Virus record (IMG/VR): IMGVR_UViG_3300038317_000129
Span: 1-54,289 of that record
From: a virus
Lineage: Duplodnaviria; Caudoviricetes
DNA length: 54,289 nucleotides
Direction: 5' to 3' (one strand)
The translations under genes and the position numbers were made by a program. Shown here one piece after another: positions 4,897-26,978 of this stretch (within the stretch, counting starts at the first letter, position 1; every line of letters begins with the position of its first letter). Under the pieces are notes generated by a model. The model did no database searches and was not told where the DNA came from. It saw only the letters and a program-made list of their open reading frames with translations.

Positions 4897-6828
4897 TCAG
4901 TCCTCCAGTTCATCCAGTGTCCCGAAAGTCATGCCCGCCGACGCTTCCGCCACGAGCGGGAGGTCGAACTCTGGAAACGGCCTCGGTTCCATGCATTCTT
5001 TAATGAAGGAAACCGCTTCCTTCAGCCTGTCTTCCGGAATGACAAATGTGAGTTCATCGTGTATCTGCAGAATAGGCTTCAGCCACGGGCGTTCCGGCAG
5101 GCCTTTCAGGAGCCTTCCGAGTGAAAGCTTGATGATGTCAGCCGCCGTTCCCTGGATCGGTGTGTTCATGCTGCACCGCTCCGCGAAGGACTTCCTGCCC
5201 CAGTCATCGGAACGGATTTCCGGCAGATAGCGTCTTCTGCCGAGCCATGTCTCCGAATACATTCTCCGCGCGGCTTCCGCTTTCGTTTCCTCCTGCCAGA
5301 CTGTCAGTGCCGGGTAGCCTGCCTTGAGATTTTCGATGATCTCCTCACACTCCCTTACGGATTTATCAACCCCCGCCTTGAACTTCAGCGTCCGCTGCAG
5401 TCCGCGAGGGAACAGCCCGTAAAATGTGCCGAAGTTCACATTTTTTGCGATCGTCCTGCGCTCCTTGTAATCCGGAGCGTGCTTGTCGTGCGCCTGCGCG
5501 TACGGAATATTGAAAATGACGGACGTGGTCGCGGCGTGGATGTCGCCGCCCGTCTTGTATGTGTCCATCATGATCCTGTCGCGGCAGTAGAACGCGCCCA
5601 CGCGCAGCTCGATCTGGCTGTAGTCGCAGGAGACAATCAGATGCCCTTCGGGCGCTTTCACGAAATTGCGGACGCCTATCGGGTCGCTGCCCTTCCTCGG
5701 CATATTCTGGAGATTCGGGGAACTGCAGCTGAACCTTCCAGTATCCGTGCTCAGAGAATAGAAGTTCGGATGTATCCGCATCGTGGCGGCGTCTATGTGC
5801 TTCATATAACCCGTGATGTATGTGGATGATATCTTGTTCCATTTCCTGTATTCCTGGACAAGCTCAAACAGCCGCGAAAGCTCCGGACGGTTCGTATCGC
5901 ACCATTCCTTCAGCTGAATCATGACAGCGTCGTCCGCTGCCGCGCGGCTCTTCTCCGTCGTGCGGAAAACGGGGAGCTTCAGCGTCTCGAACAGATACTT
6001 CTTGAAAGCGTTCGTGCTGCAATTGCTTCCTATATCAACGTCCCCGGCAATCCCGGCTATCTCAGTCCTGATTTTTTCCATCTCGCGGTCAGCTTCGGCT
6101 TTCCGCTCTTTCATGAGATCAATGTTCACCGGGACACCGTTGTACTTCATAATCCCGAGGTAAACGGATGTCGGGGATTCGATGTTCTCCACGATCCATC
6201 TGTGCTTCGGGAGGTATCTGTCAAACCATCTGTTGAAGATGCGCATGAGCCGCAGGGCGAAGTCCGAGTCGGCGCAGCTGTAGCGGATGGTTTCCGCATC
6301 CGCCGGGTCAAGCTCGTCAAAATGCCTGCCCTCCGTCACCGTCTCAAAGGACGGGAGCGGTTCGCCGCAAAGCTCCGACGCCAGTCTTTTCAGTCCCGAG
6401 TCGGAGAGCTTCCTGAACTCAGTCGGCGATTTCAGCGACATCTGGCTCGCCGCAATGGTGTCATATACAGGCGGCTGCGTGACGATGCCGTTCTTGTACG
6501 CGAACATCGACTCGAACGCCATGTTATGGGCGATTTTCGTAATCTTTGTATTAGTCAGGAAATCACGGAGGAACTTATAAAAAGTCTTTTCATCCATATT
6601 CTTTCCCGTCTTATGCGCAACGGGTATCATGATGCCCGTCCGTTCCCGGACGCTTATGCTCATGGTGCAGATATGGCTCTTCGCCGGATCAAGCGCGGCT
6701 TTCTCCTCATCACGGTAAATGTCGTCCGGCGCTGTTTCAAAGTCATAGGCGGCTTCATCCGCGTCTCCGATATAGTCAAGGATTTCCCGGAGCGTCGTGA
6801 CCGCCCTGTAGTCAGTCTTTGTTTCCAT
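4897..6828 (-). CDS. Family A DNA polymerase with 3'-5' exonuclease
   Basis: YDFET exo I; DYSQIELR (A), KNVNFGTFYG (B), QIHDEL (C); start placed at METKTDY. Confidence 0.9.
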   Translation of the reverse strand: METKTDYRAVTTLREILDYIGDADEAAYDFETAPDDIYRDEEKAALDPAKSHICTMSISVRERTGIMIPVAHKTGKNMDEKTFYKFLRDFLTNTKITKIAHNMAFESMFAYKNGIVTQPPVYDTIAASQMSLKSPTEFRKLSDSGLKRLASELCGEPLPSFETVTEGRHFDELDPADAETIRYSCADSDFALRLMRIFNRWFDRYLPKHRWIVENIESPTSVYLGIMKYNGVPVNIDLMKERKAEADREMEKIRTEIAGIAGDVDIGSNCSTNAFKKYLFETLKLPVFRTTEKSRAAADDAVMIQLKEWCDTNRPELSRLFELVQEYRKWNKISSTYITGYMKHIDAATMRIHPNFYSLSTDTGRFSCSSPNLQNMPRKGSDPIGVRNFVKAPEGHLIVSCDYSQIELRVGAFYCRDRIMMDTYKTGGDIHAATTSVIFNIPYAQAHDKHAPDYKERRTIAKNVNFGTFYGLFPRGLQRTLKFKAGVDKSVRECEEIIENLKAGYPALTVWQEETKAEAARRMYSETWLGRRRYLPEIRSDDWGRKSFAERCSMNTPIQGTAADIIKLSLGRLLKGLPERPWLKPILQIHDELTFVIPEDRLKEAVSFIKECMEPRPFPEFDLPLVAEASAGMTFGTLDELED

Positions 6829-6894
6829 ATATATATTTCTCCTATGGGAACGGCCGGAAGGAGAATGTTCCTCCCGGCGTTCACCCAATTACTT

Positions 6895-7653
6895 TTATTT
6901 CAGCGGTTCAATGATTTCCCCGGTTTCCGGATCGACGGCCGCCGCGTCCTCATATCCGGCAAGGGAAGCCACAGTAAGTCCGGCGGCGTAATGCTTCACT
7001 TGATCAACCAGCTCCGCCACGTTCTCCGCCTCATAGCTGTTCAGCAGCCGGTCGAACGAGAACACCGCCTGCGAATAGAGGATCCCCGAAGCGCTCGTCG
7101 CTTTCTTAAGGCTGATCCTTGTGACGATTCTCGACAGCTTTCTTCCCTTGGAGAGCTGGCGCTTGACGTATTTTGTGAACTCCTTCAGCGAACCCGTCGG
7201 CAGGGAGAGCGTGACGGGGAACATTTCGTTCTCCATCAGGATGTAGAGCATCCTGCGGTTCTTGCACGCCTTCGCCTGTCCCTCGCCGCTTCCGAAGCGG
7301 TTGTACGGGCATTCAGCGCAAAGTCCGCCCGGATCGCCTGTGCCGTTCACACCGTCAAAGGAGCCGCAGTCCGGCGGATTGCTCCCGCCCTGATACTTGT
7401 CCCTGTAGTAGGCGTAGGCGGGATGGTGCAGGAGTATGACCCCCTTGATTTCCTTCACCATCTCGGTGTCGTCGTCATCTCCCGGAATCTCGAACGCGGT
7501 CGCTCCTCCTGCCGGGATCTTCACCCTGTCAAAGGTCAGTTGCAGTCCGGCAAGATCGTCAGCCGCATCGGCAAGCGCGTCCGTATTGGCAAGCGCGGCG
7601 TATCCGCTCTGCACTGCCATTTCCGTTGTTTCAGTATTCTTTTTCACTGCCAT
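6895..7653 (-). CDS. Phage ssDNA-binding-like protein
   Basis: Replication-module position; Cys cluster (C..CPYN.FGS...C); acidic tail VDPETGEII. Confidence 0.5.
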   Translation of the reverse strand: MAVKKNTETTEMAVQSGYAALANTDALADAADDLAGLQLTFDRVKIPAGGATAFEIPGDDDDTEMVKEIKGVILLHHPAYAYYRDKYQGGSNPPDCGSFDGVNGTGDPGGLCAECPYNRFGSGEGQAKACKNRRMLYILMENEMFPVTLSLPTGSLKEFTKYVKRQLSKGRKLSRIVTRISLKKATSASGILYSQAVFSFDRLLNSYEAENVAELVDQVKHYAAGLTVASLAGYEDAAAVDPETGEIIEPLK

Positions 7654-7720
7654 ATCAGTGTCCTCCGTTTATTCAAAAGTCTTTGTTCATGTCATTGCCG
7701 CGTTGTTCTTCGTTCTGTGT

Positions 7721-8128
7721 TCAGCCCTTGCGGACGCCGACGGTCACTTTCTCGTATGCCGAGACATACGGCTCGAGCCACGCGGGGATTTCATCCGCGT
7801 TCGCGGCTTTCTGCTCCCGGACGAACGACGACAGCGTGTTGCTGTTGACCGTTTCAACGACAAGGGAGCCATAGCCGTTGTCCTTCAGCGCCTGCATCAG
7901 GTCGTCCCTGCACCCCGCGGCGGGCGAAGCAAAGAGCCTTGTGTTCAGGTAGAACGTGCTGCCGTTCCGCGAGAAGCGTTCCACTTCCTGCTCCGCCATC
8001 ATGTCTGACAGCTCACGGTCAAGCTGTTCGATCTCCGCGTTCGTCTCCTTTACCCGCACGTCGAGTTCCTTCTTCCTGTCCCTCGCGGCTTTGAGTCTGT
8101 CCGCCAGTTCAAAAATCTGATTGTTCAT
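7721..8128 (-). CDS. Phage hypothetical coiled-coil protein
   Basis: AGGAGG RBS; N-terminal coiled coil; replication-module context. Confidence 0.65.
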   Translation of the reverse strand: MNNQIFELADRLKAARDRKKELDVRVKETNAEIEQLDRELSDMMAEQEVERFSRNGSTFYLNTRLFASPAAGCRDDLMQALKDNGYGSLVVETVNSNTLSSFVREQKAANADEIPAWLEPYVSAYEKVTVGVRKG

Positions 8129-10595: not shown

Positions 10596-10727
10596 AAAAA
10601 AGCTCCTTTCAGATTCGGTAGAATCCGCAGGAGCCTTTTTCATCCGTAGAGACAAAAAACGGCTTGGATATAGTTCACCCATAGGGGTTTTGAACTAAAT
10701 CCAGGCCGTCAAACAGCTCTGCGGATT
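10596..10727 (-). promoter_or_regulatory. Structured 5' leader with RBS-sequestering hairpin and alternative pairing
   Basis: Hairpin 10596-10640 covers AAAGGAG; long hairpin about 10658-10709; 10719-10727 is complementary to 10622-10630. Confidence 0.55.
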
Positions 10728-10753
10728 TCTATGTTTAATTGTGAGTTGTGGTG

Positions 10754-10963
10754 TTAAGCCACTGTTTTCCTGCTTTTAACGCTAAAGTCGTTTGCGGTAA
10801 CTCTGGTAATTACCGTTACTATGCCTTGACGTTCAACAGTAAATGTTTCGCCGATTGCAAGGATCGTACTGGTTTTATGTCCTTTATAAAGACATTCAAT
10901 AAGCCCTGTTTCACGGCATGCCATACAGGCTAATCGTCCAAGACAATCATGGATCGGTATCAA
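10754..10963 (-). CDS. Small hypothetical protein
   Basis: AGGAGG RBS upstream; 69-aa ORF between ImmA and the sigma-like gene. Confidence 0.55.
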   Translation of the reverse strand: MIPIHDCLGRLACMACRETGLIECLYKGHKTSTILAIGETFTVERQGIVTVITRVTANDFSVKSRKTVA

Positions 10964-11019
10964 TCATGGACCACCTCCTTCTTAATACAGTACATAATCA
11001 TTATTCCCTGTTTAGCGTG

Positions 11020-11035
11020 TACGCTTATCTGCGTA
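11020..11035. promoter_or_regulatory. Palindromic operator TACGC-N6-GCGTA (early genes)
   Basis: TACGCTTATCTGCGTA; same motif at 12142, 18998 and 19075. Confidence 0.65.
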
Positions 11036-11081
11036 ATATCAGGCAAAAAAATAGGCTTCTGTTGCATTACTGCAGCAGAAG

Positions 11082-11747
11082 TCAAAGTAAGCTGCACTCT
11101 TTCAAACGTATTTCTACCGATTTTTTTGACACTTCAAAATAACCCGCCAAAGCACCAATGGCGCTTCTGTTGTCCTTGTCATACGCAACTCCAAGTCTCT
11201 CAGCTGCTTCCGTAAACGTGCTCTTTGGCATTAAAATCCTGGGAGCAATACCAATTGCTTGTGCTTCCATGATATTTTCGTCGTCCGTCGCTTCTGGCAA
11301 CTGCGAAACGTTGCATTTACAATATTTCGCATATCTGGGCAATACAAGATTCTGATACTTGTAGTAGTAGCGATGCTTATACCAGTGGACGCATTCATGT
11401 GCAAGTGTGTTGTTTCGGCAACCTGTGTTTGTTCTCTTTACTGCCTCAGGATCAACCAGAACAGTTCTTGCCTTAAACTCTCGTGTGTCATATAAACCTT
11501 CGTCTGGATCATACACCTCTACAAGGCCATCGGTAAAAATCGTCATGCCGTATATATCGAGCTCTTCAGTAAGACATATGTATTGTACATCAAGCCCCAG
11601 CCCATCCTTAGCAATTTGTTCAATTGGGACAGGCATGGGGTCTTTCAATGCTTTCGGATAATATTGCTCCAAGAACTCATTTGCTACTTCGTCATATTTG
11701 GATGGTGGTATAAACGGCACGAGTTTACGACTGTTGTAATCCATCAT
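11082..11747 (-). CDS. ImmA/IrrE-family Zn metallopeptidase
   Basis: NTLAHECVHW (HExxH), E.QA...ILMP, C-terminal FEVSKKSVEIRL. Confidence 0.9.
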   Translation of the reverse strand: MMDYNSRKLVPFIPPSKYDEVANEFLEQYYPKALKDPMPVPIEQIAKDGLGLDVQYICLTEELDIYGMTIFTDGLVEVYDPDEGLYDTREFKARTVLVDPEAVKRTNTGCRNNTLAHECVHWYKHRYYYKYQNLVLPRYAKYCKCNVSQLPEATDDENIMEAQAIGIAPRILMPKSTFTEAAERLGVAYDKDNRSAIGALAGYFEVSKKSVEIRLKECSLL

Positions 11748-12121
11748 TGTTCTCCATTCCGTTTGTCAATAATCTGGTTCACCTCCTGCCAGAAGTCGTC
11801 TCCGAGCCCCTGACTTTTTGCCCTTCGTAGTGCGACCCGCGCGTTTGGCAATGATTCGTCCATGATATAATCTGGCAGGTCTGGAGACACTTGTTTCCTT
11901 TCTCTCCCAGCAAGGTCGAGCATTTCTTCCCGTTCCTGTTCGTTCAGGTTCAAGGCTTGTGCAAGTTTTTCAAGGCCATCAATATCAGGCGGGTTCCTTC
12001 TTCCTTTAATGATATCAGACAGATATGTTACGGAAACACCGAGCTTTTCAGCTATCGGTCTTAGTTTGATATCCTTCTCTAATCGTTTACGTGCAATAAA
12101 TGCACCAAATTCGCCAGCCAT
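11744..12121 (-). CDS. XRE-family HTH repressor (ImmR-like)
   Basis: LRPIAEKLGVSVTYLSDIIKGRRNPP; ATGA overlap with ImmA. Confidence 0.9.
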   Translation of the reverse strand: MAGEFGAFIARKRLEKDIKLRPIAEKLGVSVTYLSDIIKGRRNPPDIDGLEKLAQALNLNEQEREEMLDLAGRERKQVSPDLPDYIMDESLPNARVALRRAKSQGLGDDFWQEVNQIIDKRNGEQ

Positions 12122-12140
12122 TTTAGTCCTCCTTTCGCTA

Positions 12141-12191
12141 TTACGCTTTTACGCGTAACTGTATTGTATCCTATCCTGCCGTAAATGTCAA
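12141..12191 (-). promoter_or_regulatory. SigA promoter of xre-immA with operator at the start site
   Basis: TTGACA (12186-12191), 17 bp, TACAAT (12163-12168); TTACGCTTTTACGCGTAA at 12141-12158. Confidence 0.75.
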
Positions 12192-12260
12192 GCCCTGTAC
12201 AGCCCTCTTCTTTGTTAATTATTCTAACTTGATTTTGAACATTATTTTTGATTTAGAGCA

Positions 12261-12289
12261 TTGATAAATCAATCGTGATGTGCTATAAT
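12261..12289 (+). promoter_or_regulatory. SigA promoter of the C5 methyltransferase
   Basis: TTGATA, 17 bp, TATAAT with extended TG. Confidence 0.7.
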
Positions 12290-12319
12290 TAGAACAAGTT
12301 AAAGGAAGGAGAACTGACC

Positions 12320-13774
12320 ATGCCGCAGCACGGAGGAAGACGAGAAGGGTCAGGTAGGACACCCCTGCCTGAGAATGAAAAGAAAATACCAAAAACTATA
12401 TACATTACGCCCACCCTTCAGACTGACATTGACAAATTTGCAGCTGGAAACAGCTTTTCTGAAAAGTGCATCGATCTCATCAGCGCGCAGATTTCCCGCA
12501 GAAAACGCACGCAGGATAAAACCGTCAAATTCATCGACCTTTTCGCGGGACTTGGCGGGATACGCCTTGGTTTTGAAAACGCATTTAAGGAAAAAGGCTT
12601 CGAACCCGTTTGCGTTTTTAGCAGCGAAATCAAGGATTATGCTGTAAAGGCATATAAAAACTATTTTGACGATGAAGAAGTCGCGGGTGACATTACTAAA
12701 ATCCCTGCAACCGACATTGAGGATTTTGATTTCCTGCTTGGTGGATTTCCGTGCCAGCCATTCTCGGCAGCTGGGTTAGGTCTCGGATTTGAGGATACTC
12801 GCGGCACGCTCTTTTTTGAAATTGAACGGATACTTAGGGAAAAGCAGCCTTATGGGTTTCTGTTAGAAAATGTTGAGGGACTTATAAACCATGACGATGG
12901 ACGAACCCTTTCCATTATTATCGACCACTTGAAAAAGCTGAACTATTATGTTTCTTACAGACTGATTGACAGCCAGTATTTTGGCTTGGCTCAGTCTCGA
13001 AAACGCGTATATATCGTAGGAACGAAGGATGCCCATATATCCTTAGATAACTTTGAAGAGCATACAGCGGTATTCGGCGACATCATGGAGCATGGTCTTC
13101 CTACCGTGGATTCGGAATTCACTCGAAAGCTGTTTTCGCATTTCACCCCAGCACAAGTGGTAGGGAAAGCGATTAAAGATAAACGCGGAGGAGCCGACAA
13201 TATCCACAGCTGGGAAATTGGTTTAAAAGGAGACACTACAGAAGAGCAGTCCAATTTCCTGAACCTCCTTCTTCTTGAACGCAGGAAGAAAAAGTGGGCA
13301 GCGGAAATCGGGATAGACTGGATGGATGGCATGCCGCTGACTGAGCAGCAAATATCGACCTTCTTCCAGCATGATGATTTAAAAGGCTTTCTCGACAACC
13401 TTGTAAATATGGGATATCTTACACTGGAATATCCGCGTAAGAGATATAAAGGCAGACGTGTACCGGATGAAACCAAGCCGAAGGGATACAACATTGTAGC
13501 AGGCAAATTGTCTTTTGAATTCACAAAAATACTTGACCCTGCTGAACTTGCGCCAACGCTCGTAGCGATGGATGTTTCCCATCTCGGCGTTGTTGACGGG
13601 AACGGTCTCCGTAGACTCTCAATCAGGGAAGGACAGCGGTTATGCGGGTTTCCGGAAGATTATGACTTATCCTTCTTAAAAGAAAGTGAGGCGTTTGACC
13701 TCCTTGGGAACACAGTCTGCATACCGGTTATCCAGGCAATTTCAGAACGGCTGGCGGACATGTACAGTAATTAG
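12320..13774 (+). CDS. DNA (cytosine-5) methyltransferase, M.NlaIV/M.NgoBV-like, with N-terminal DNA-binding extension
   Basis: DLFAGLGG, GFPCQ, ENV, QSRKR, LGNTV; TRD KDKRGG..NIHSW.I.LKG and EIGIDWMDGMPLT recalled from M.NlaIV (GGNNCC). Confidence 0.9.
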   Translation: MPQHGGRREGSGRTPLPENEKKIPKTIYITPTLQTDIDKFAAGNSFSEKCIDLISAQISRRKRTQDKTVKFIDLFAGLGGIRLGFENAFKEKGFEPVCVFSSEIKDYAVKAYKNYFDDEEVAGDITKIPATDIEDFDFLLGGFPCQPFSAAGLGLGFEDTRGTLFFEIERILREKQPYGFLLENVEGLINHDDGRTLSIIIDHLKKLNYYVSYRLIDSQYFGLAQSRKRVYIVGTKDAHISLDNFEEHTAVFGDIMEHGLPTVDSEFTRKLFSHFTPAQVVGKAIKDKRGGADNIHSWEIGLKGDTTEEQSNFLNLLLLERRKKKWAAEIGIDWMDGMPLTEQQISTFFQHDDLKGFLDNLVNMGYLTLEYPRKRYKGRRVPDETKPKGYNIVAGKLSFEFTKILDPAELAPTLVAMDVSHLGVVDGNGLRRLSIREGQRLCGFPEDYDLSFLKESEAFDLLGNTVCIPVIQAISERLADMYSN

Positions 13775-13781
13775 CTATCAC

Positions 13782-13811
13782 AGAGGCGGTTGCTCCTTTT
13801 GCACCGCCTCT
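13782..13811. terminator. Hairpin between convergent MTase and DUF3883 genes
   Basis: AGAGGCGGTTGC-TCCTTTT-GCACCGCCTCT followed by a T-rich tract. Confidence 0.6.
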
Positions 13812-14745
13812 ATATTTTTTGTACCCTGTATGAAGATGCGTTGACCATCCATTCTTCACCATCAAACACAACGGTGTAAGGGTCACGTATGAAAACCGGC
13901 TGATAGCCCGGTTCCTTCATCCTCGCATAATCGACAAGGCACAATACGTATTTGTTTGCCTTAATTTTGGCCACATCTGTTTCGTTCTCTGACCAGAAAA
14001 AGTGTGGGGAGCCAATGTAGCATTTCACTTCGATAAAACGGTCATAATGCGTTGATCCATTTGCTTCGTATGAAACAATATCATACCCGGCAGCTGTATC
14101 AAAATCAGAGATCCTCTTGATTTTCCCAGCCATCCCAGGAAGCCGGCTTTTTTCAAGACTAAGGACAAACTCCTCTGCCTCGAGTCCGCGACGGCTCTGT
14201 TCCTCCTGCTGCTTTAACAATTGTTCAAGCGTTATTTTCTTTTTACGACTACTTAATTGTTCCGCCCAGTCCGTTTCATAATCACCGGAAACGCTTATTT
14301 CTCCGTTTTCCTCTTTGTCCAGAGCACCGACCATTGTTAGGAAGTTCCGAATAGCCGCATAAGCTAATGGGAAAGCAGAGCGTTTGATGGTGAGATGACC
14401 TTTTTCGGCGTCAAATCCTGTAGCACCTGCATCAAATATCCCATCTTCAACGAGACGGTCTATACTTAGAGCCGCAAGATCTCCAATCGCCTCATCGCCG
14501 CTTTTGGCGGCAATCCCATTAAACTTGGCAGAAGGGAACACCATATCTGGCGTTGTTGACACTAATCCCAGGTATTCAAAAAAAGCCACAGCGCCCGGAC
14601 AGTTGACCACAATATTATTTTCCAAAGCGCATCTATTCCTGATCTCGTTCTTGCTAATTTTTTCTTTATCTGCCATTATCGAAATGAGGAACAGAACGCC
14701 ATTAACATTGCCTATGGAATTACATCTTTTTAGTTCTGTTAACAT
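13810..14745 (-). CDS. DUF3883 (NOV C-terminal) PD-(D/E)xK nuclease domain protein
   Basis: G..AEEFV...E, GYDI, RFIEVK, FFWSENE. Confidence 0.8.
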   Translation of the reverse strand: MLTELKRCNSIGNVNGVLFLISIMADKEKISKNEIRNRCALENNIVVNCPGAVAFFEYLGLVSTTPDMVFPSAKFNGIAAKSGDEAIGDLAALSIDRLVEDGIFDAGATGFDAEKGHLTIKRSAFPLAYAAIRNFLTMVGALDKEENGEISVSGDYETDWAEQLSSRKKKITLEQLLKQQEEQSRRGLEAEEFVLSLEKSRLPGMAGKIKRISDFDTAAGYDIVSYEANGSTHYDRFIEVKCYIGSPHFFWSENETDVAKIKANKYVLCLVDYARMKEPGYQPVFIRDPYTVVFDGEEWMVNASSYRVQKI

Positions 14746-16681
14746 ATTCCGCAATCAAGGCCTTGATATCGTCATCACCAGTCTCCAGCCCTGCATTTTC
14801 AAACAGCGGGATAGGCATGCTTTCGATAATTTCCCTGAGCCTTGTCTCCTTTTCGATTAGCCTGTTGTGGATAACTTCATCAATGGAATCCTCTGACAGG
14901 AGGTAATAATAATTTGTTTCTGTTCCCGGCTTTAGTCCGTATCTGTGGATGCGGTCCTTTGACTGAATGAAGTGCGCTGCGTTAAAGCTCCTTTCCATGT
15001 AGATGGCGTTATGGCAAGCCTTGTGCAGGGATATAGATTCCGAGACGGCAAATGGGTTCGCAATAATCACCTTGAAAGGGGAATCCGGCTTATGGAAATC
15101 AGCTATGATTTTTTCCCTTGTCTCAACTTCATCCTCGTCCTCATCACCTGTAGACACAGGCGTCGCCCCATATAATGTTTTACAGAGAATACCGTTTGAC
15201 AGGAGGTATTTTTCAAAGTCGAGTATATTCTGGATATAAATAGCCCAGACAACGACCTTCCCTCCCTCAGAAATAATCTCTTCAATTAGTTCACGTGCTT
15301 TTATAAACTTTGCCGGCGTTTCCAACGTGGCATATTGGAGGACATCAGCCACAAGGGAGGTATCTTCAGATACAGCCCCCGAATCAAAGCCCTCAAGGGA
15401 TGCGAAATTCTTTAGCGGAACACGGAGAAGGCTTGGATTCGTGGCCGCCTGCATCATGCGAAGCAGACGAGCCTTTACCAGATCCTGCCTGAACAAGTTG
15501 TCCTTGGTCGAAACGATATCGTCCATGTACTTTTTTTCTATCACATCGTATATTCTACGTTGCGCCTCGCCCATCGGAACAATAATGGGCTCATGCTCCG
15601 TAGCCGGAGGTATTCCCAAGTCGCTTTTTTTTACGCGGATAAAGAACGGCTCGATTGCCTGCAGTAATGTATTCACCCTTGGGTCATTATCCGACTTGCT
15701 CATATCCTTCAGTTGGTACACTTCAAACGGTATTATCTTCTTTGTCGGCCAGATGAACTTATAAAGGTTATAAAGATCCTCGTACCCATTCGGTGCCGGC
15801 GTACCAGTCAGGACGACCCTGGCAGAACAATATGAGGCAATGTCCAAAACACCGGCAGCGGTTACTCCACCGCTGGTATTCTTGATTTTATGGGCCTCGT
15901 CCAATACGACCATTACTTTATTATTCCGCAGAAAATAAACCAGCTCGTCTTTTAACGATGGGACAGAAGCATAGGACAGTAATGTGATCTTCGCTGGGAC
16001 TGGAGAATAAAGATACTGCTTTTTTTCTTCAATGGAAACCTTTCCGTTCAGCCTTTTTGTGGATGGTTCCTCCCCAAAGCATTCCTTGTATTCGAGTTCC
16101 CACGGACCAAATGCGCTGAGCGGCGAGATGATTAGCAACCGGTCAACGTATTTTTTGTCGTTCTCCGGAAGGTGTGACAGATAAGCGAATGCACCATAAA
16201 CAACGCTTGTCTTTCCAGCTCCGGGCACGGAAAAGTTACACGCGTTTTGTGAAAAAGCAAGATGATAAGCAGAAAGAAGCTGCAGTTCGTATAGACTCCT
16301 GTTAGGCAGATTTGTACTGACCGAATCAACGAATTGCTTAAAATCATCCTTGTTGCACTTGTTATCTCTGATCAGTCGTGCCTGTTCCGCAAATTCCCTG
16401 AATTTTTCCTCTTCGAGGGCATAGCTATTGACCGCCTCTGAAACCTCACCGGAATATAAAAGGTCTGCGTTTATATATCTGCACAACTTCTTGACTCGGT
16501 CGATACTTTTGTTGATCCCGTCACCAGCCTCAATAACAAGACCACCGTTTGTCTCTGTATACTTAAGGGTATCTTTCAAGTAGCGTAATGCACGTCTGTT
16601 ATTGAATATTGCCCCTATATCGCCGGTGATAATCAGAGAACTGTCGTCATTTCCATTTGATCCAATACACAGTTTCTTCAT
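14720..16681 (-). CDS. SNF2-family ATPase/helicase
   Basis: SVPGAGKT, LDEAH, LTGTP, QSKDRIHRYG. Confidence 0.9.
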   Translation of the reverse strand: MKKLCIGSNGNDDSSLIITGDIGAIFNNRRALRYLKDTLKYTETNGGLVIEAGDGINKSIDRVKKLCRYINADLLYSGEVSEAVNSYALEEEKFREFAEQARLIRDNKCNKDDFKQFVDSVSTNLPNRSLYELQLLSAYHLAFSQNACNFSVPGAGKTSVVYGAFAYLSHLPENDKKYVDRLLIISPLSAFGPWELEYKECFGEEPSTKRLNGKVSIEEKKQYLYSPVPAKITLLSYASVPSLKDELVYFLRNNKVMVVLDEAHKIKNTSGGVTAAGVLDIASYCSARVVLTGTPAPNGYEDLYNLYKFIWPTKKIIPFEVYQLKDMSKSDNDPRVNTLLQAIEPFFIRVKKSDLGIPPATEHEPIIVPMGEAQRRIYDVIEKKYMDDIVSTKDNLFRQDLVKARLLRMMQAATNPSLLRVPLKNFASLEGFDSGAVSEDTSLVADVLQYATLETPAKFIKARELIEEIISEGGKVVVWAIYIQNILDFEKYLLSNGILCKTLYGATPVSTGDEDEDEVETREKIIADFHKPDSPFKVIIANPFAVSESISLHKACHNAIYMERSFNAAHFIQSKDRIHRYGLKPGTETNYYYLLSEDSIDEVIHNRLIEKETRLREIIESMPIPLFENAGLETGDDDIKALIAEYVNRTKKM

Positions 16682-16695
16682 TCACTCAACATCCT

Positions 16696-17982
16696 TTACA
16701 GTCCGAGTATATCCTTGAACTTCGATACATATTCATCTAACGAAGATACACACGCACGCACCTTACTGTCGCTCATAAAACTCGCCTGGTCAACGTCTAC
16801 GACCGAAAGTGCCTGACACGCTTTCATAAGCTGCTGCAGAGGCTTGGCGGCGTTCGCGTGGTTATTTAGGATATCTATGCTCTGGACATAATTATCATCA
16901 AAAGAGTCCTCTACCTTCCGCTTCCACTGCTGGTCACGGGCCTTTAAAGCCCGACTCAGATCCGGTGGGTTCTTCGCCATTATATCTTCGACAGACTCTT
17001 CCTGGACGGAATCCGTAGCTGCGAAATGCCTATCACGGAACTGCTCCCATACTTCTTTCTTTGCAAAGAAGCTGGCGGCAGGGTTCTTGGCGGAAGGTGC
17101 TGAAATAATGTCTCGGAACTTTGTCTGTTCGAAATTGGCACGTATGTAATCAAACGCAATCAATTTCAAGTCAGAAACATCAGCTTCTGGATCGTAATCC
17201 CACATTGAAGCCACTCCGGCTTTATATTTTTTCAGCGCCGAATCGAGCTTTAGGAAGGAGTCCTCACTCTTCCCCAACTGAGTATACATACCCGAATATC
17301 CATATTCGTCCAGATACTCATCCATCAATTGGAGCGCAGACAGCATCGTGCGTACTTCTCCGGCTTTGCAATCCATCATCCCCGCAATATCATCGTCAGT
17401 AAAACCGGCGTCTTTCAGGTCCTTGCATTTCAGGTACTTCTCAATCGGGTTATAATCAACCTTGGCGTCCTCACCCATCTGGTAAGTGGTTTCCAGCGCA
17501 AGAATCTCTTTCTTGTCTGCACCTTCCGGGAGGATAATGGCAATAAAATATTGACAGTGGGTCTTCTCGTTGAATGGGATACTGTCGTCCGCCATTATAT
17601 TATTCAGCAAACTTGCACGGCGGTTACCATCAATAATCATACCATCGGCGGTCACGATACCGTGCCTTTGCTGATGCTCTTTCAGAAGACGTTCTTTGGT
17701 TTTCTTGTTCGCATCCGGCTTGGAGTCCCACAGGAATTTCTCTATAATTTTCTTATCCCCGGGGTCTTCGGGATCCAATTGGTGGTTCTGCCGTTCATAC
17801 GACTTGACAACGCTCCCGATCCTTCCGTTATATGGATTATAGACAAGATACTCCAGAGGAATTTCGTATGCGTCCAAGGTAATGATGCTGCCGTGATAGG
17901 TAATAGGAATACCGGTCCGGCACGCTTTCTCTGGGTGGTCGGTAAATTCTTTCAGTTTTGCTTTTCTCTCAGTAGCGTTCAT
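16696..17982 (-). CDS. ParB/Srx N-terminal domain protein
   Basis: YNPYNGRI and GIVTADGMIIDGNRR motifs; helical C-terminal region. Confidence 0.75.
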   Translation of the reverse strand: MNATERKAKLKEFTDHPEKACRTGIPITYHGSIITLDAYEIPLEYLVYNPYNGRIGSVVKSYERQNHQLDPEDPGDKKIIEKFLWDSKPDANKKTKERLLKEHQQRHGIVTADGMIIDGNRRASLLNNIMADDSIPFNEKTHCQYFIAIILPEGADKKEILALETTYQMGEDAKVDYNPIEKYLKCKDLKDAGFTDDDIAGMMDCKAGEVRTMLSALQLMDEYLDEYGYSGMYTQLGKSEDSFLKLDSALKKYKAGVASMWDYDPEADVSDLKLIAFDYIRANFEQTKFRDIISAPSAKNPAASFFAKKEVWEQFRDRHFAATDSVQEESVEDIMAKNPPDLSRALKARDQQWKRKVEDSFDDNYVQSIDILNNHANAAKPLQQLMKACQALSVVDVDQASFMSDSKVRACVSSLDEYVSKFKDILGL

Positions 17983-17999
17983 CTTTAATTCCTCCGCAG

Positions 18000-18929
18000 T
18001 TATAATTCGTCGATGTGGGCATCTATAATATCTTCCAATAGCCCCATATTCTTAAAATTCAAAACATAGTCCGAACACCTATGGATCTCTTTCAAATCTG
18101 CCTGCCTGCCAATCCAGCCAGCCCCATCCAGAAAGTTCACATAGATGATATTATTACCAGAAGCACGTTCTGATTTTATGACTTCCTCTGTTTTCCTTGC
18201 CGCTGTCTTTTTGCTACCCTGACTACTCGAAGTAGTTACGCTGTACGAAACGTCAAAGATAAGTTTCGGCTTATTTGGAGATTCTATGACGAAGCTGACG
18301 GCCCGGTCGAGTTTAGGCACGCGCACATTTTTCTGATACTCCAAGCCATATTTAGCACAGACACGTTTCAGTTCGTTTTCTACATCAGCAAGAACCGCAT
18401 CACCTATCATATTGCTGTATGTGCCTTCCAAGCTACGCTTCACAAGCTGGCGAACACTGTCTTCATCCTTTATTTTTGCGAGTGTATTGGCATCCATAGA
18501 CATATTTTCCAAATAGAATGCCGGGATGCAGGCCTGCATATTAGGATCGTTCTTCCCATTCCATATAAGGTTCAAGATACTTTCCATCATTACCGGGCTT
18601 TCCATCATTGCTGAACGGATCTTACTCAGCCCCCATTCTGTGCCGAAAACAAATCCACGGTCTTTCCGTATCATAGAAACCATGCGTTTGAACCTCTCCT
18701 CAGAAATCTCCATAACGGATGTAAGGCGATCCAACGCGTCCTTGTGATCGATAATATATTGTTTCAATGTTTCCTTGCTGGTAATCGTTTTCAATCCGAC
18801 GAGAATGTCCGCAGTCTGCGTATCGATCATATCCTTAATTGACTTCTCGCAGCCCTTATTGATATAAAACATCGTTGTCGAATTGAACAGTTCCTCGTAG
18901 GACAGCTTTTGTACATTGTTAACAGCCAT
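18000..18929 (-). CDS. DpnII/BanI-fold restriction endonuclease-like protein, probably with a degenerate active site
   Basis: SYSVTTSS and NFLDGAGWIGR motifs; RAVSFVI where D is expected. Confidence 0.65.
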   Translation of the reverse strand: MAVNNVQKLSYEELFNSTTMFYINKGCEKSIKDMIDTQTADILVGLKTITSKETLKQYIIDHKDALDRLTSVMEISEERFKRMVSMIRKDRGFVFGTEWGLSKIRSAMMESPVMMESILNLIWNGKNDPNMQACIPAFYLENMSMDANTLAKIKDEDSVRQLVKRSLEGTYSNMIGDAVLADVENELKRVCAKYGLEYQKNVRVPKLDRAVSFVIESPNKPKLIFDVSYSVTTSSSQGSKKTAARKTEEVIKSERASGNNIIYVNFLDGAGWIGRQADLKEIHRCSDYVLNFKNMGLLEDIIDAHIDEL

Positions 18930-18959
18930 TTCTGAACCCTCCATCGTTGTGATGTGTTA

Positions 18960-19013
18960 ATTATATCACGGCGAAGAGTGAAAGGCAATATACAAATTAC
19001 ACTTTTTTGCGTA
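18960..19013 (-). promoter_or_regulatory. SigA promoter of the four-gene operon with adjacent operator
   Basis: TTGCCT (18983-18988), 17 bp, TGnTATAAT (18960-18965); TACAC-TTTTTT-GCGTA at 18998-19013. Confidence 0.7.
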
Positions 19014-19074
19014 TTATCTAGCGTCCCATATTATCTGTTTTTTGTGCTTGTATATATCCCATCTTTTTTACGTA

Positions 19075-19090
19075 TACGCTTATAAGCGTA
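19075..19090. promoter_or_regulatory. Palindromic operator TACGC-N6-GCGTA (defence operon)
   Basis: TACGCTTATAAGCGTA, a perfect palindrome. Confidence 0.65.
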
Positions 19091-19128
19091 ACTATATCTC
19101 AAAAAAAATAAAACTTGAAACGTTTACA

Positions 19129-19620
19129 CTATGTTTCCTCATCCGTCGAATAAACATCCTCGGCAGATACAATCGTTTTTTCAAATATCGTTTCTTCTAT
19201 AACTTTTACACAACCATTTAAATCCTTTTTTATGTCTTTTCCCCAGAACCGTATTACAGTCCAATCAAGAGATGCTAATTCCTGATCAACCTTTTTGTCG
19301 CGTTCCATATTTTCTTCAATGTGACGGATCCAATAATCCGGATTCTTCCCGTGCGAAAGCCGTTCTTTCAGTTTATCCCAATCTTTTCCATGAAAGAACT
19401 CACTGTCACAAAAAATTGCTATCTTCTGTTTTGTTATCGCTATGTCTGGAGAACCCGGAAGTTTACTATAGTTCTTTCGATAGCGGTAACCATCGTGCCA
19501 TAAGCGCTTCCGAAGCAAGATTTCAATGCTGGTATCTTTGCTACGAATCTTCTGCATGTTCTTCCTGGTTTTTTCAGAAACCTTTCCGAACTGCCGCTCG
19601 ATTCTGCGCATAGACGACAC
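19129..19620 (-). CDS. vsr: Very short patch repair endonuclease
   Basis: NMQKIRSKDT..E, GSPDI, FCDSEFFHG, N..YW, WTVIRFW. Confidence 0.9.
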   Translation of the reverse strand: MSSMRRIERQFGKVSEKTRKNMQKIRSKDTSIEILLRKRLWHDGYRYRKNYSKLPGSPDIAITKQKIAIFCDSEFFHGKDWDKLKERLSHGKNPDYWIRHIEENMERDKKVDQELASLDWTVIRFWGKDIKKDLNGCVKVIEETIFEKTIVSAEDVYSTDEET

Positions 19621-20030: not shown

Positions 20031-20462
20031 TCATTCGACCCGTTCGGTTCCGAACCGATCCCTGATATAGCAGTCAAAGCAGCAGTACTTTCTGTTCCGA
20101 TTTCCATAGGCTGTGAACTTTTTCCCGCAGCATGCGCAGATAAACTCGTAGTTTGCTTTCCGGTTGATCTGGTTCCGGTTTTTGCTCCACCATTTCCTGC
20201 GGCACTTATCACAGCAGAATATTTTCTGTTTCCGCTTCGGATTCTGCTCGATCGGCGCTCCGCAGTTCCTGCAATGCGATAGTTTCACATCATTGTATGT
20301 GCCGGCCTGTGCTTCCTTCTTTGCTATTCCGGCAAAACCGTGCCGCCTGCAGTATGATTTTACAGTTTCGCGGTTAAGGCCGAGTTCCTTCGATATTTCT
20401 CCGTATCCGACGCCTTTTTTCCGCATTCTCTCTATTTTATCTTTCTGCGCTTCATTCATCAT
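20031..20462 (-). CDS. HTH plus zinc-finger protein typical of recombinase modules
   Basis: GYGEISKELGLNRETVKSYCRR; CRNCG, FCCDKC, CACCG, YCCFDC. Confidence 0.75.
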   Translation of the reverse strand: MMNEAQKDKIERMRKKGVGYGEISKELGLNRETVKSYCRRHGFAGIAKKEAQAGTYNDVKLSHCRNCGAPIEQNPKRKQKIFCCDKCRRKWWSKNRNQINRKANYEFICACCGKKFTAYGNRNRKYCCFDCYIRDRFGTERVE

Positions 20463-21882
20463 AAAATACCTCATTCCTTTTTCTGTCATATGTCGGGATT
20501 GGCTTTTCGCGTGTACTCCCATCGATTAAGCAGAACCGCAGCATCTTGTCCGGCAGTACGGTTATCTGCTTGATGGTAAGCGCCAGATCCTCTTCATCCG
20601 AAAGCATCCGGGATATATCCCGCTTCTTCAGTTTCTTAATCCACTCCCTTACGCCCGGAATCCTGTCTGCCGGAATGATGCCGACGAGAATATCCGTCAG
20701 CACATCTGCCAGCTTCCGCTCAAGCGCAATGTCCCTCGCCGTATCGTGAATCACATAATGGAGCGCCTTGTCCGCCACGTTATGCGTTTTGCACCGCGCT
20801 TCCTTTCTCCACCTGTTCCGGCACTGCCATATGATTTTCCGGTACTCATCGTTTGAATGCCACGGACGCGGTGTAAATGTTCCGCCACATTTCCCGCAGA
20901 TGAGCTTGCTGGAAAGCACAGTCACGCCGGAATACCGCTGATTGTTTTCAAAGCTGCGCTCCTTCATACGCTCCTGCACATAATCAAAAAGCCACGGGGA
21001 GATAATCGCCTCGTGGTCTTCTCTAACATAATACTGCGGCAGTTCGCCTTCGTTTTTCTTTACCTTCTTGGTCAGGTAATTGACTGTAAAGCTTTTTTGA
21101 AGTCTGCTGTCGCCCTTGTACTTTTCATTTGATAATATGCTGCGGACGGTGGAACTCCACCATTTCCCGTTTTCAGCGTTCGGCGTGTCAGCGCCTTCGT
21201 TCTGCATGATTCTGGCAATCTGCGGGGATGCGTAGCCCTGCAGGAAGAGGAAGAATATCCTCCGGACCTCATCAGCCTGTTCCTCGTTGACCACCATCGT
21301 GTATTTTTCATCGCCCTTGTCGTAGCCAAGGAAACGGCCGTAAGCAAGGCTCATCTTTCCATCGGCGAACCTCTTTCTCTGTCCCCATTTGACGTTCTCC
21401 GAAATCGACCGTGATTCCTCCTGGGCGAGGGAGGACATGATGGTCAGTAAAAATTCACCCTTGGAATCCAGAGTGAAAATGTTCTCTTTCTCAAAGTAAA
21501 CGCCGATTCCTTTTTCCTTCAGCTTGCGGATGATGGTGACCGTATCCACGGTGTTCCGTGCAAACCTCGATATGGACTTTGTCAGTACCAGATCGATGTC
21601 ACCGTTCAGGCAGGCGTCCACCATTCTGTTGAAGCCCTCGCGCCTGTTCGTGCTCAGTCCGGAAATCCCGTCGTCTACAAACACCTCCACGAACTCCCAT
21701 CCGGCATGCTGCAGTATTTTCTTTCTGTAATAATCAGTCTGCGCGGCGAGGCTCGATTCCTGATCTTCATGGTCGGTCGATACTCTTACGTAGGCCGCCA
21801 CGCGCTGTACTGCCTTTTCCGCTTCTTTCATCGTCGCCGGGCGCGGGACAGCATTGATACGTGTAACTACTCTATCTTTCAA
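20452..21882 (-). CDS. Large serine recombinase (integrase)
   Basis: YVRVST catalytic motif, KSISRFARN, LAQEESRSISEN, recombinase domain, Zn ribbon CGKCG. Confidence 0.93.
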   Translation of the reverse strand: MKDRVVTRINAVPRPATMKEAEKAVQRVAAYVRVSTDHEDQESSLAAQTDYYRKKILQHAGWEFVEVFVDDGISGLSTNRREGFNRMVDACLNGDIDLVLTKSISRFARNTVDTVTIIRKLKEKGIGVYFEKENIFTLDSKGEFLLTIMSSLAQEESRSISENVKWGQRKRFADGKMSLAYGRFLGYDKGDEKYTMVVNEEQADEVRRIFFLFLQGYASPQIARIMQNEGADTPNAENGKWWSSTVRSILSNEKYKGDSRLQKSFTVNYLTKKVKKNEGELPQYYVREDHEAIISPWLFDYVQERMKERSFENNQRYSGVTVLSSKLICGKCGGTFTPRPWHSNDEYRKIIWQCRNRWRKEARCKTHNVADKALHYVIHDTARDIALERKLADVLTDILVGIIPADRIPGVREWIKKLKKRDISRMLSDEEDLALTIKQITVLPDKMLRFCLIDGSTREKPIPTYDRKRNEVFYDE

Positions 21883-22422: not shown

Positions 22423-22833
22423 TCAGTCGGCTTGTATCATTTCGGTCACGGCTTCATCGATATAGATCATCTTGATTTTGCCAAGGTAGGTCTCCTGCAG
22501 GAGCTTCAGCACTTCCAAATTGTCGCCTTCAATATAAAGGTTTTCGGTTGTGTCGAAGTTGACGCTTTCCTCCCGGCAGGGGCGGAGCGTCTTATTGATC
22601 GGCGCGTTGGCAAGCAGGACGGACTTTTTCTTGTCCGGCCATGTGAACTGATAGCGCTCCTCGCGCCCCTCCACCACAAAGTCGGAAAGCTCCTGCTTGA
22701 GCATATCAAAATCCACCACCCGCGTGAGCTTGCCGTCCACCAGCGATTCGGTCACGCAGTTCGGGAAAAGCCGCGCGATTTTTTCAACGTTTTCGTCCAC
22801 TTTATTGATGCTGTGCATTTTCAGCTTGTCCAT
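22423..22833 (-). pseudogene. mod: Type III R-M methyltransferase (Mod), truncated at the DPPY motif
   Basis: ERYQFTWPDK, NLYIEGDNLEVLKLLQ, KIKMIYID then EAVTEMIQAD-stop instead of PPYNTG. Confidence 0.9.
22450..22465. other. Putative attachment junction (attL/attR) of element A
   Basis: Abrupt loss of mod homology after the Asp codon (22456-22458); recombinase about 570 bp away. Confidence 0.65.
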
Positions 22834-22847
22834 GGATCTGTTCCTCC

Positions 22848-23114
22848 TTATTCGTGGGTGTACCATGTTGAACATGGGCTTACGCTATATTCCGATACAC
22901 GGTAAAGCTGTTTCTCTCCGCTTTCAATACGCTGATAAGTGTCTTGCGTAGACTCAATATCGTAAGAATAAAAGATGTTTTCTGGGTCAACCGCTACTTT
23001 CAATCGACGAAGGACTCTGCCTACCGTGTCTCCATCTGTAGAAAAAACGCAATCTCCTTTTTCAAAACAGTCCTGTTTTGTTGTTAAAGTAAAAGCAAAG
23101 ATATCATCAGGCAT
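22848..23114 (-). CDS. Small hypothetical protein between DUF4391 and mod
   Basis: GGAGG RBS; start overlaps the DUF4391 stop; 88 aa. Confidence 0.55.
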   Translation of the reverse strand: MPDDIFAFTLTTKQDCFEKGDCVFSTDGDTVGRVLRRLKVAVDPENIFYSYDIESTQDTYQRIESGEKQLYRVSEYSVSPCSTWYTHE

Positions 23115-23733
23115 TTTCAATATCCTCCAGTTTTTTATTCAACTCTTGTAATTGCCGATACAGTTCAAATTTCTTTTTCGGCTGAACCTCGCTCTGCGTT
23201 CGTTTTTCCAGCTTCTCTATTTCTTTTTGCAGTTTCAGGATTCTTTCCTGCCGCTGTAAACGGGTATCAAAATCTTCACCCGGCAAAACTTCTGTTAAGC
23301 TGTCCCGCAACGCAATTTGCTCCAAAAAGCCCTGCCATACCGCGTCCAGCGTAAAGCCTTTCACTTGGAGCGTGATTTCGTCATCGGGCACCCATGCCGT
23401 GGTGTAGAGCTTCCCGTAATAAACCGCAAGCTGCGCTTTGTCCTCAAACCGCAGCAGAAACAGCAGCTTGTGCGGATTCTGCCGGGCAATGTTCTCTACG
23501 ATGCGCCCGTCAAACTGCTGCTTTTTCAATTCAACGGTCAGCACCAGTATCTCGTTAATTTCATCCCCTGCCTCCAGATTGAGCGTAGCGGCGGTCAGGG
23601 AGTTTGAGAGGGTGATGCGCTTGATGTCGGCAACAAATTTCTCCTTCAGGTCGCCGCTTAACGTCAGGTGTTGATAGAACGCCTCCTTTGGAAGCACACG
23701 TCCGACGGTCGTTGCGGAAGGCAGATGTATCAT
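23107..23733 (-). CDS. DUF4391 protein
   Basis: LP.AT.VGR.LPKEAFY N-terminus; EVQPKKKFELY C-terminal coiled coil; Type III R-M context. Confidence 0.85.
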   Translation of the reverse strand: MIHLPSATTVGRVLPKEAFYQHLTLSGDLKEKFVADIKRITLSNSLTAATLNLEAGDEINEILVLTVELKKQQFDGRIVENIARQNPHKLLFLLRFEDKAQLAVYYGKLYTTAWVPDDEITLQVKGFTLDAVWQGFLEQIALRDSLTEVLPGEDFDTRLQRQERILKLQKEIEKLEKRTQSEVQPKKKFELYRQLQELNKKLEDIENA

Positions 23734-26963: not shown

Positions 26964-26978
26964 GCCGCAACCCCCGTT

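Follow-up and report, generated by a model that had tools for sequence, protein, structure and literature searches.

The 54,289-nucleotide (nt) window analysed here is the entire IMG/VR record IMGVR_UViG_3300038317_000129, from a virus of the Caudoviricetes, and all motif scans described below cover it in full. Between 11 and 20 kb it carries a block made up of an XRE-family helix-turn-helix (HTH) gene, xre, and a metallopeptidase gene, immA, which together lie at the head of prophage early genes, a C5 cytosine DNA methyltransferase (MTase) gene and a four-gene operon encoding a restriction-endonuclease-like protein (RE314), a protein of no known family (p428), an SNF2-family helicase and a NOV_C (DUF3883-like) protein. 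The MTase gene is divergent from xre and convergent to the four-gene operon. We refer to the promoters of xre, of the MTase gene and of the operon that starts with the restriction-endonuclease-like (RE) gene as P_xre, P_MTase and P_RE. Here, we describe a palindrome that recurs at the control points of xre-immA, the early genes and the RE operon, and we propose that it is the operator of XRE.

Occurrence of the palindrome in the window

The motif TACGC-N6-GCGTA occurs exactly at 11020-11035, 12142-12157 and 19075-19090, precisely where the original prediction made from this DNA had placed it, and nowhere else in the window. Only 0.01 copies are expected, and none of 100 shuffles reached three. 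Allowing one mismatch raises the number of matches to six, where 1.08 would be expected; again, none of 100 shuffles attained six. Among these is the one-mismatch copy TACACTTTTTTGCGTA at 18998-19013, the end of which lies 9 nt upstream of the -35 of the RE operon, as had been claimed; the two remaining matches, at 1452 and 53818, are within chance and have no comparable position. Of the exact copies, the one at 12142-12157 begins 5 nt past the -10 of P_xre, the one at 11020-11035 follows the immA terminator and precedes the first early gene, and the one at 19075-19090 is found 39 nt past the stop codon of vsr, a repair endonuclease gene upstream of the RE operon. Two further details of the original prediction were borne out: on the plus strand TACGC (or TACAC) is followed by TT at all four sites, and the scan found no copy, even with one mismatch, over P_MTase (12261-12289).

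In all three classes of site a third half-site (GCGAA, GCTAA or GCGTA) lies 3 nt downstream of the palindrome, always toward the downstream gene. The full operator is therefore predicted to be a 24-bp element, TACGC-N6-GCGTA-N3-GCKWA. At P_xre the third half-site extends into the ribosome-binding site.

Conservation of the operator across relatives

Relatives of XRE comprised 793 proteins at E values up to 1e-5, and we compared 31 viral loci, 71 genome loci and one GenBank phage. The close set consists of 43 sequences, the window included, in which XRE is at least 70% identical. The MTase gene adjoins xre in 41 of these 43, and the two without an MTase match (L036 and L038) are short contigs that begin approximately 300 nt upstream of xre. 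Wherever upstream DNA is present, the MTase gene and the RE operon accompany every XRE that is at least 71% identical. With at most one mismatch, the palindrome is present at P_xre in 41 of 43 sequences (35 exact and six with one mismatch; L044 and L056 have two), and behind immA in 32 of the 41 sequences that have DNA there (27 exact and five with one mismatch), including 18 of 18 viral loci of this clade. It is missing behind immA in nine sequences (L036, L042, L044, L049, L051, L054, L056, L057 and L063). Across relatives, the half-sites are constant and the A/T-rich spacer is variable.

Furthermore, the motif is exclusive to these positions. A relaxed version, T[AT]CGC-N6-GCG[AT]A, was scanned over the window and the fetched loci with an XRE match, approximately 1.49 Mb in all, and gave 109 matches: P_xre accounts for 55, the region behind immA for 36 and the region upstream of the RE gene for 18, with none elsewhere. 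The confinement to the same three control points that had been proposed for this DNA is therefore also found in its relatives.

XRE as the predicted binder and ImmA as its putative protease

Of the HTH genes, only xre is found with the motif in every locus; the other HTH genes of the window (xre126 at 4513-4893 and hth163 at 20031-20522) have no homologues in the compared loci. The palindrome changes with the protein. An XRE clade at 54-62% identity, which is without the MTase gene and the RE operon, keeps both the motif at P_xre and the recognition-helix segment YLSDIIKGRR. In L083, where the XRE segment reads ...DIEKSRR, the same spot after the -10 is occupied by TTAGC-N6-GCTAA, and in more distant clades (FLTDVEKDRR and YMSNIENDRR) other inverted repeats are found there. 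This co-variation is qualitative, and it is what would be expected of a repressor-operator pair. Searches with guessed patterns did not find copies of the alternative palindromes behind immA in the distant XRE clades. The original claim of one XRE operator common to the switch, the early genes and the restriction-like operon thus gains comparative support, from the exclusivity of the motif, its fixed position with a variable spacer and its change with the recognition helix.

XRE matches the PADLOC models capH (5.1e-5) and Control_protein (5.6e-5), the latter over residues 5-63 only and no better than capH or generic HTH models. Its best relative in the PDB is DdrO (E 1e-6, residues 12-91), which is a substrate of the IrrE protease.

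The translation of immA contains HECVH, an instance of the HEXXH zinc-binding motif, and among 39 homologues H117 and H121 are invariant and E118 is nearly so. The protein matches PADLOC capP (9.9e-10), covering profile positions 60-153 of 242 only. A structure model built from the 39 homologues (mean pLDDT 87.1) has CapP (7t5t, E 3.1e-6) and then PprI/IrrE as its best PDB matches; ImmA has 221 residues against 278 in 7t5t, and the TM score is 0.53 when normalised to the query and 0.43 when normalised to the target. The model consists of the peptidase and a helical linker, with only helices after residue 155. On this model, ImmA is without a GAF domain, and its architecture is of the ImmA type, not the CapP type.

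Architecture of the restriction promoter

The comparison of P_RE used the 26 sequences that extend 260 nt or more beyond the RE gene on its upstream side; they represent 24 distinct architectures. The core promoter is kept (ATTGCC, 17-18 nt, TGnTAnnnT), and a 16-bp element ending 9 nt upstream of the -35 is present in all 24. Compared with the palindrome, this proximal element has at most one mismatch in six architectures, two in 16 (mostly as TCCGC-AAAAAA-GTGTA) and four in two. The distal operator further upstream has at most one mismatch in 16 of 24, two in one and at least three in seven. Where both are present, the distal and proximal sites are 76-78 bp apart in 11 of 16 cases and 58-74 bp apart in the other five, and the sequence between them shows little conservation. 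In L017 and L047, GTGTA forms the third half-site of genuine operators behind immA, and it is therefore a tolerated half-site variant. Part of the conservation of the proximal element may serve the promoter itself.

Approximately 20 nt upstream of the proximal element, nine relatives (L004-L006, L009, L037, L041, L042, L046 and L063) share a box, GGTTCTC[AT]AAAAAAT, which is not present in the window. A second promoter upstream of P_RE (TTCTCA-18-TGTAAT) fits these nine relatives and not the window, and it was dropped as a general feature. Just outside the distal operator (10-120 nt upstream), GAGGATACAGATT-like repeats occur in L052 and L054, with a host tRNA-U5-methyltransferase-like gene adjacent in L054; these repeats may be recombinase arm sites at the element edge.

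Genes and promoters of the block

The features of the block and of its immediate surroundings are collected in Table 1.

Table 1. Features of the block and flanking genes in the window, listed in the direction of minus-strand transcription.
Feature	Position	Strand	Evidence or remark
Large serine recombinase	20452-21882	-	Gene map
HTH protein hth163	20031-20522	-	Gene map
vsr, very-short-patch repair endonuclease	19129-19620	-	Pfam Vsr 6.6e-24; NCBIfam vsr 6.9e-35
Predicted distal full operator of the restriction-like operon	19067-19090	-	Perfect 16-bp palindrome TACGCTTATAAGCGTA, then degenerate third half-site
Predicted proximal weak operator	18998-19013	-	Minus strand TACGCAAAAAAGTGTA, one mismatch, centred near -51 of P_RE
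P_RE promoter	18960-18988	-	TTGCCT-17-TATAAT, TG before the -10
RE314, restriction-endonuclease-like	18000-18944	-	Pfam RE_BanI 1.6e-9, DpnII 1.4e-7; PADLOC REase_II 2e-7
p428	16696-17982	-	No known family
SNF2-family helicase	14720-16681	-	Pfam SNF2-rel_dom 5.7e-21; PADLOC ZorD/DrmD-like partial matches
NOV_C (DUF3883-like) protein, last operon gene	13810-14754	-	Pfam NOV_C 1.3e-12; PADLOC PD-T4-1 2.1e-13
C5 cytosine DNA methyltransferase	12320-13774	+	Pfam DNA_methylase 2.6e-74; NCBIfam dcm 1.1e-97
P_MTase promoter, TTGATA-17-TATAAT	12261-12289	+	Promoter scan; region with repeats 12229-12289
P_xre promoter, TTGACA-17-TACAAT	12163-12191	-	Promoter scan
Predicted operator at the xre transcription start	12134-12157	-	Minus strand TACGCGTAAAAGCGTA-ATA-GCGAA, exact match
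xre, 125-residue XRE-family HTH protein, DdrO/CapH/ImmR type	11744-12121	-	Pfam HTH_3 6.7e-11
immA, 221-residue M78/COG2856 zinc metallopeptidase	11082-11747	-	Pfam Peptidase_M78 6.4e-8
Intrinsic terminator after immA, hairpin and T tract	11045-11081	-	RNA fold
Predicted operator between the immA terminator and the early genes	11012-11035	-	Minus strand TACGCAGATAAGCGTA-CAC-GCTAA, exact match
p69, first early gene, TTG start	10754-10963	-	Homologues at the same place in relatives

xre and immA share a strand, the start of immA overlapping the stop of xre by 4 nt, and in relatives P_xre is kept as TTGACA-17-TATAAT. A hairpin with a T tract is found at the same place after immA in relatives, with different stem sequences. 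The early and replication genes run on the minus strand down to position 236 and encode p69 and SNF2, PolA, D5-type primase, resolvase-like and sigma-like proteins; their GC content is 51-58%, compared with 39-47% in the block at 11-20 kb. P_RE is located 6.8 kb from xre, and the gene divergent from xre is that of the MTase, not the RE operon.

The BanI/DpnII-type match of RE314 lies in its C-terminal half, and its true start is probably the ATG at 18929, which is preceded by the ribosome-binding site GGAGGG. p428, which is 75-92% identical in relatives, gave no match in Pfam, PADLOC, NCBIfam or PHROGs, none that was meaningful in the PDB, and only unnamed clusters in the Atlas. PADLOC models did not recognise the operon with the C5 MTase (and sometimes vsr) as a known system. 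This set of genes is 58-92% conserved in approximately 40 loci from Lachnospiraceae, Oscillospiraceae, Bacillaceae, Clostridium and Streptococcus, and it is probably an undescribed ATP-dependent restriction system. vsr appears as an optional accessory upstream of the cassette, with homologues only in L004-L006, L009, L037 and L041.

P_MTase contains direct repeats, TTGATTTTGAACATT and TTGATTTAGAGCATT, which are 19 nt apart, as well as inverted arms at 12239-12255 and 12265-12281, and a related box, AATGCCCWAAATCAAG, is kept in relatives. The MTase itself has a 69-residue N-terminal extension ahead of the Pfam domain (12320-12532 region). Promoter repeats and extension together may point to autoregulation by the MTase. 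Residues 1-71 showed no DNA-binding domain and matched nothing in Pfam at E values up to 10; a ribbon-helix-helix fold had been considered for this N-terminus and was rejected on that search.

Mobility of the block

xre-immA, the C5 MTase gene and the four-gene operon form one portable unit. A large-terminase gene is present in five of five related IMG/VR records; coordinates were compared in one of them, G001, where this gene follows the early genes and points the same way. Streptococcus phage Javan191 (MK448700.1, L106) carries the whole block, with both operators, heading early genes. In prophages, therefore, the block is bordered by the edge of the element on one side and by the early operon on the other. 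Behind it, the loci that share the block have different early genes, and several carriers have neither phage genes behind immA nor the post-immA operator. In L063 (Streptococcus sp.) the block lies on the chromosome within a split type I restriction-modification (R-M) locus; in L054 it is part of a chromosomal island adjoining the tRNA-U5-methyltransferase-like gene; in L044 (Sellimonas catena) it is followed by mobilisation, RepA_N and tyrosine-integrase genes, and in L051 by an IS3 transposase. An exact distal operator upstream of the RE gene is retained in L044, L054 and L063, and L051 has a two-mismatch proximal element only. Among cultured carriers, Heyndrickxia shackletonii LMG 18435 has the cassette at the head of a prophage, and Sellimonas catena JCM 35622 has it in a non-phage setting. 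The label of prophage switch given to xre-immA in the original prediction is thus apt in that the pair heads prophage early genes, but it is incomplete, as in this clade the pair always accompanies the R-M block, even where no phage genes lie behind it.

In the clade with 50-62% identical XRE, xre-immA heads phage early genes of the DUF2800/PolA type, and the cargo upstream consists of SNF2 with N6/N4 methylase and ResIII, type I systems, or Eco57I-like, AlwI and Mrr genes. The relaxed motif found no operator copies in this cargo. The slot just upstream of the switch is, judging from these gene contents, a cargo hotspot of such prophages. We infer that the switch was ancestrally a phage switch beside a cargo hotspot, that one R-M-like cargo gained operators and became fixed to it, and that the two spread onward as one block, in some cases together with phage genes and in others not. 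In L026, L058, L060, L066, L067, L075, L083, L086 and L090 the slot upstream of xre holds type I, type IIG, type III-like (with SNF2), AlwI or Mrr systems, and in the distant XRE-ImmA clade this varied-cargo slot often has an AAA_17 gene and two genes of no assigned function.

A proposed mechanism and its alternatives

On balance, we think it probable that XRE represses at all three control points and that cleavage by ImmA relieves all three. XRE would bind the 24-bp operator, presumably as a dimer or a dimer of dimers. As P_xre is near consensus and the operator covers its start site, autorepression of xre-immA from this strong promoter is the straightforward reading. The operator behind the immA terminator would gate transcription into the co-directional early operon, which would be fed by read-through from derepressed P_xre, with the operator as a roadblock in the lysogen. 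This mode is proposed because the stretch from the terminator to the first early gene shows no recognisable promoter. A consensus scan found no sigma-70-type promoter for the early genes, and no conserved -35 or -10 could be seen by eye in 18 aligned post-immA regions, where the placement of -10-like hexamers near the third half-site is inconsistent; in some of the aligned loci a ribosome-binding site follows the operator within approximately 12 nt. A roadblock of this kind has a precedent in the C protein C.Kpn2I, which reportedly can act in this way (PMC6237814).

Upstream of the RE operon, the full site near -128 and the weak site near -51 would hold down a strong extended -10 promoter in a CapH-like manner, perhaps with looping by a dimer of dimers. 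CapH is a dimer or tetramer whose binding site is a conserved 22-bp region lying upstream of the -35 in a CBASS promoter, and it represses until it is cleaved by CapP, which is activated by single-stranded DNA (ssDNA); CapH/CapP-like pairs also accompany other defence systems, including DISARM (bioRxiv 10.1101/2022.04.27.489752). In our proposal, ImmA would cleave XRE on a stress or infection signal, and xre-immA, the early genes and the restriction operon would rise together. Such induction of restriction along with the prophage, with methylation left on, is what the original prediction had suggested. The MTase gene would run from its own promoter, and the lack of an XRE site there, together with the promoter's own repeats, suggests that methylation is independent of XRE.

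Several considerations weigh against this proposal. At P_RE, the sites are centred near -51 and -128, both clear of the core promoter; most architectures have a degenerate proximal copy, the distal copy is lost (at least three mismatches) in seven of 24, and their spacing is variable. Control of the restriction operon by XRE may therefore be weak, optional or opposite in sign. The A6 spacer and GTGTAAT of the proximal element are strictly conserved, unlike in true sites; together with the GGTTCTC box of some relatives, they could represent an UP element, a second promoter or the site of another protein. The roadblock and read-through mode depends on the absence of an early-gene promoter. In addition, prophage defence genes are usually on during lysogeny, a poor fit with tight repression by a lysogeny repressor. 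Finally, ImmA is without the GAF domain by which CapP and IrrE sense ssDNA.

Two other explanations concern the sites at P_RE. XRE might act there as the controller (C) protein of an R-M system: on arrival in a new cell methylation would precede restriction, and the RE operon would be activated only after XRE had built up. When ImmA cleaves XRE, restriction would cease (restriction alleviation) and the early genes would come on, the reverse of what the original prediction foresaw. We regard this as unlikely, although the placement of the sites upstream of the -35 rather than over the core promoter agrees with it, as do a -35 that is off consensus (TTGCC) yet strictly kept, an MTase promoter that is independent, as in C-dependent systems, the nearly equal PADLOC matches of XRE to Control_protein and capH, and the expression of prophage defence genes in lysogens mentioned above. 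The TG and good -10 found in nearly all relatives should make P_RE active unaided, however. C proteins also lack a protease partner, and the R gene follows immediately behind the C gene, unlike the order found here; CapH, which among regulators linked to defence is the closest relative, exerts its repression from a site upstream of the -35. The other explanation, in our view quite unlikely, is that XRE binds the full operators behind terminators (the site after immA and the site after vsr or the element edge) only to insulate against read-through from upstream genes. P_RE would then be constitutive, the proximal copy would not be an XRE site, and restriction would not be meaningfully co-regulated with induction. 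The variant GTGTA in the post-immA operators of L017 and L047 speaks against dismissing the proximal element, which also keeps the 5+6+5 geometry and the CGC core in most of the 24 architectures, and the distal and proximal sites co-occur 76-78 bp apart in 11 loci despite divergent intervening sequence. In favour of pure insulation, both full sites lie directly after terminators or an element boundary in the orientation of transcription, the proximal element is off consensus in most relatives and has a conserved spacer, which true sites do not, and the distal site is dispensable in seven of 24 architectures.

A more radical alternative is that the palindromes are not XRE sites at all but RNA leader hairpins, terminator-like elements, or sites for another protein, such as the MTase N-terminal extension or the recombinase. 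The palindrome at 12141-12158 was indeed scored as a terminator-like hairpin and folds as a small hairpin. Nevertheless, the half-sites show no compensatory changes, only one-sided ones that break pairing (TTCGC with GCGTA, or TACGC with GCGAA), and Rfam gave no match anywhere in the window. The sites also persist in XRE-ImmA loci without the MTase gene and the RE operon, and they change with the recognition helix of XRE, so we consider this alternative very improbable.

RNA evidence was sought as well. Six runs labelled metatranscriptomic (one of which is probably DNA, by its record) contain 20-62% of the words sampled from 10700-19300. The four that were mapped gave low-depth assembled contigs with no starts, ends or strand, and no inference was drawn from them. 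One contig spans the divergent promoter region and could be DNA carry-over, and uncovered parts, such as the early genes in one run, are uninterpretable, given that the block also occurs with other early genes.

Relationship to known systems and significance

The arrangement of xre and immA resembles that of ImmR/ImmA in ICEBs1 and phage phi105, where an XRE-type repressor gene is followed by an overlapping gene for an M78/COG2856 HEXXH protease at the head of the element. The lysogeny-switch arrangement of Bacillota prophages is likewise shared, and the autoregulated promoter of that switch has a predicted counterpart in P_xre (bioRxiv 10.1101/2022.04.27.489752; PMC11318856). The predicted sites of the window clade occupy the corresponding positions, at the pair's own promoter (41 of 43) and at the entry to the early genes (32 of 41). 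However, ImmR/ImmA faces a divergent lytic promoter, whereas xre-immA is co-directional with the early genes, with a terminator and an operator between them. Here, furthermore, the operator set reaches a restriction-like operon approximately 7 kb away, and the pair stays with that operon even without phage genes.

In CapH/CapP (Lau et al. 2022), too, an HTH protein and a zinc metallopeptidase are encoded beside a defence operon. The operator of CapH lies upstream of the defence -35, a geometry matched by the predicted proximal element, which in all 24 architectures is 9 nt away from the -35 on its upstream side. CapP carries a C-terminal GAF domain after the peptidase and an HTH-like linker, whereas the model of ImmA ends without one. 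The CapH/CapP regulator shares a divergent promoter with its defence operon, but in the block this place is taken by the MTase gene, and the same predicted operator would also gate prophage early genes. DdrO/IrrE (PprI) of Deinococcus offers a third parallel, as DdrO is the closest solved relative of XRE, PprI/IrrE has a fold like that of ImmA and the regulon is defined by a palindromic operator; it is a chromosomal DNA-damage regulon rather than a mobile module of defence or of a prophage, and its protease IrrE contains a GAF domain. The C proteins of type II R-M systems are similar in being small XRE-type HTH proteins with palindromes upstream of the restriction promoter and an independent MTase. 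C genes are, however, co-transcribed with and directly upstream of the R gene and have no protease, whereas xre is paired with immA and the MTase gene separates it from the RE operon.

This system appears to bridge ImmR/ImmA and CapH/CapP, which are both known separately. Tentatively, the protease-cleavable repressor of a portable R-M-like block could be the master switch of its host prophage, setting the level of nuclease and helicase and gating a promoterless early operon. Repressor-protease pairs have been known separately for the induction of prophages and integrative elements and for the control of defence operons, and here one pair seems to do both through one operator. If so, the block would stand, as a living intermediate, between the ImmR/ImmA switches of phages and the regulators of the CapH/CapP kind found in defence islands, and anti-phage defence and prophage induction would be coupled to one signal. 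Confirmation would show by what route phage switches become defence regulators, or defence regulators phage switches, how potentially self-damaging restriction is timed relative to prophage induction, and how a terminator and an operator can replace a dedicated early promoter. Moreover, the finding flags an uncharacterised four-gene restriction-like system with a ready regulatory handle, in a conserved block that is shared by many Bacillota, cultured strains among them, and by a deposited Streptococcus prophage.

Our survey of full-text literature found neither this block described nor any XRE/ImmA operator serving an R-M operon as well as prophage early genes. Lachnospiraceae prophages with ImmR/ImmA-like switches and R-M cargo have been described (PMC11318856), and the nearest case in print is the reported accidental cross-talk of C.Csp231I with the Rac repressor (PMC6765115). 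Among deposited phages, Javan191 encodes RE-like, p428, SNF2, NOV_C, C5 MTase, XRE (80%) and ImmA (67%) homologues, with a p69 homologue behind. Its P_xre operator is exact and its post-immA operator has one mismatch; the record begins at the RE gene, so the upstream operators fall outside it. In its annotation (6769-7790) xre is absent, and the intact immA homologue (67% over 217 residues) is represented only by short unrelated open reading frames.

Neighbouring regions of the record

The record contains two different partial phage genomes placed head to head, at 1-22400 and 30886-54289, and is listed in IMG/VR as linear with a CheckV completeness estimate of 100%. The replication genes of the left phage, which carries the block, are on the minus strand, and this phage is cut off at the left end of the record. 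The right phage, cut off at the right end, includes DUF2800, PolA, VapE, terminase (48546), portal (50167) and major head protein (52257) genes. Between them, at 22423-30521, lies a defence island with Lamassu LmuA/C/B (27243-30521) and an HKD and SNF2 protein with DUF4391 (23107-26963). At its left edge, a fragment of 150 residues (22423-22875) matches only the N-terminus of a type III methyltransferase. This fragment adjoins the serine recombinase gene, at a distance of approximately 540 nt, which suggests that the left phage integrated into a type III methyltransferase gene.

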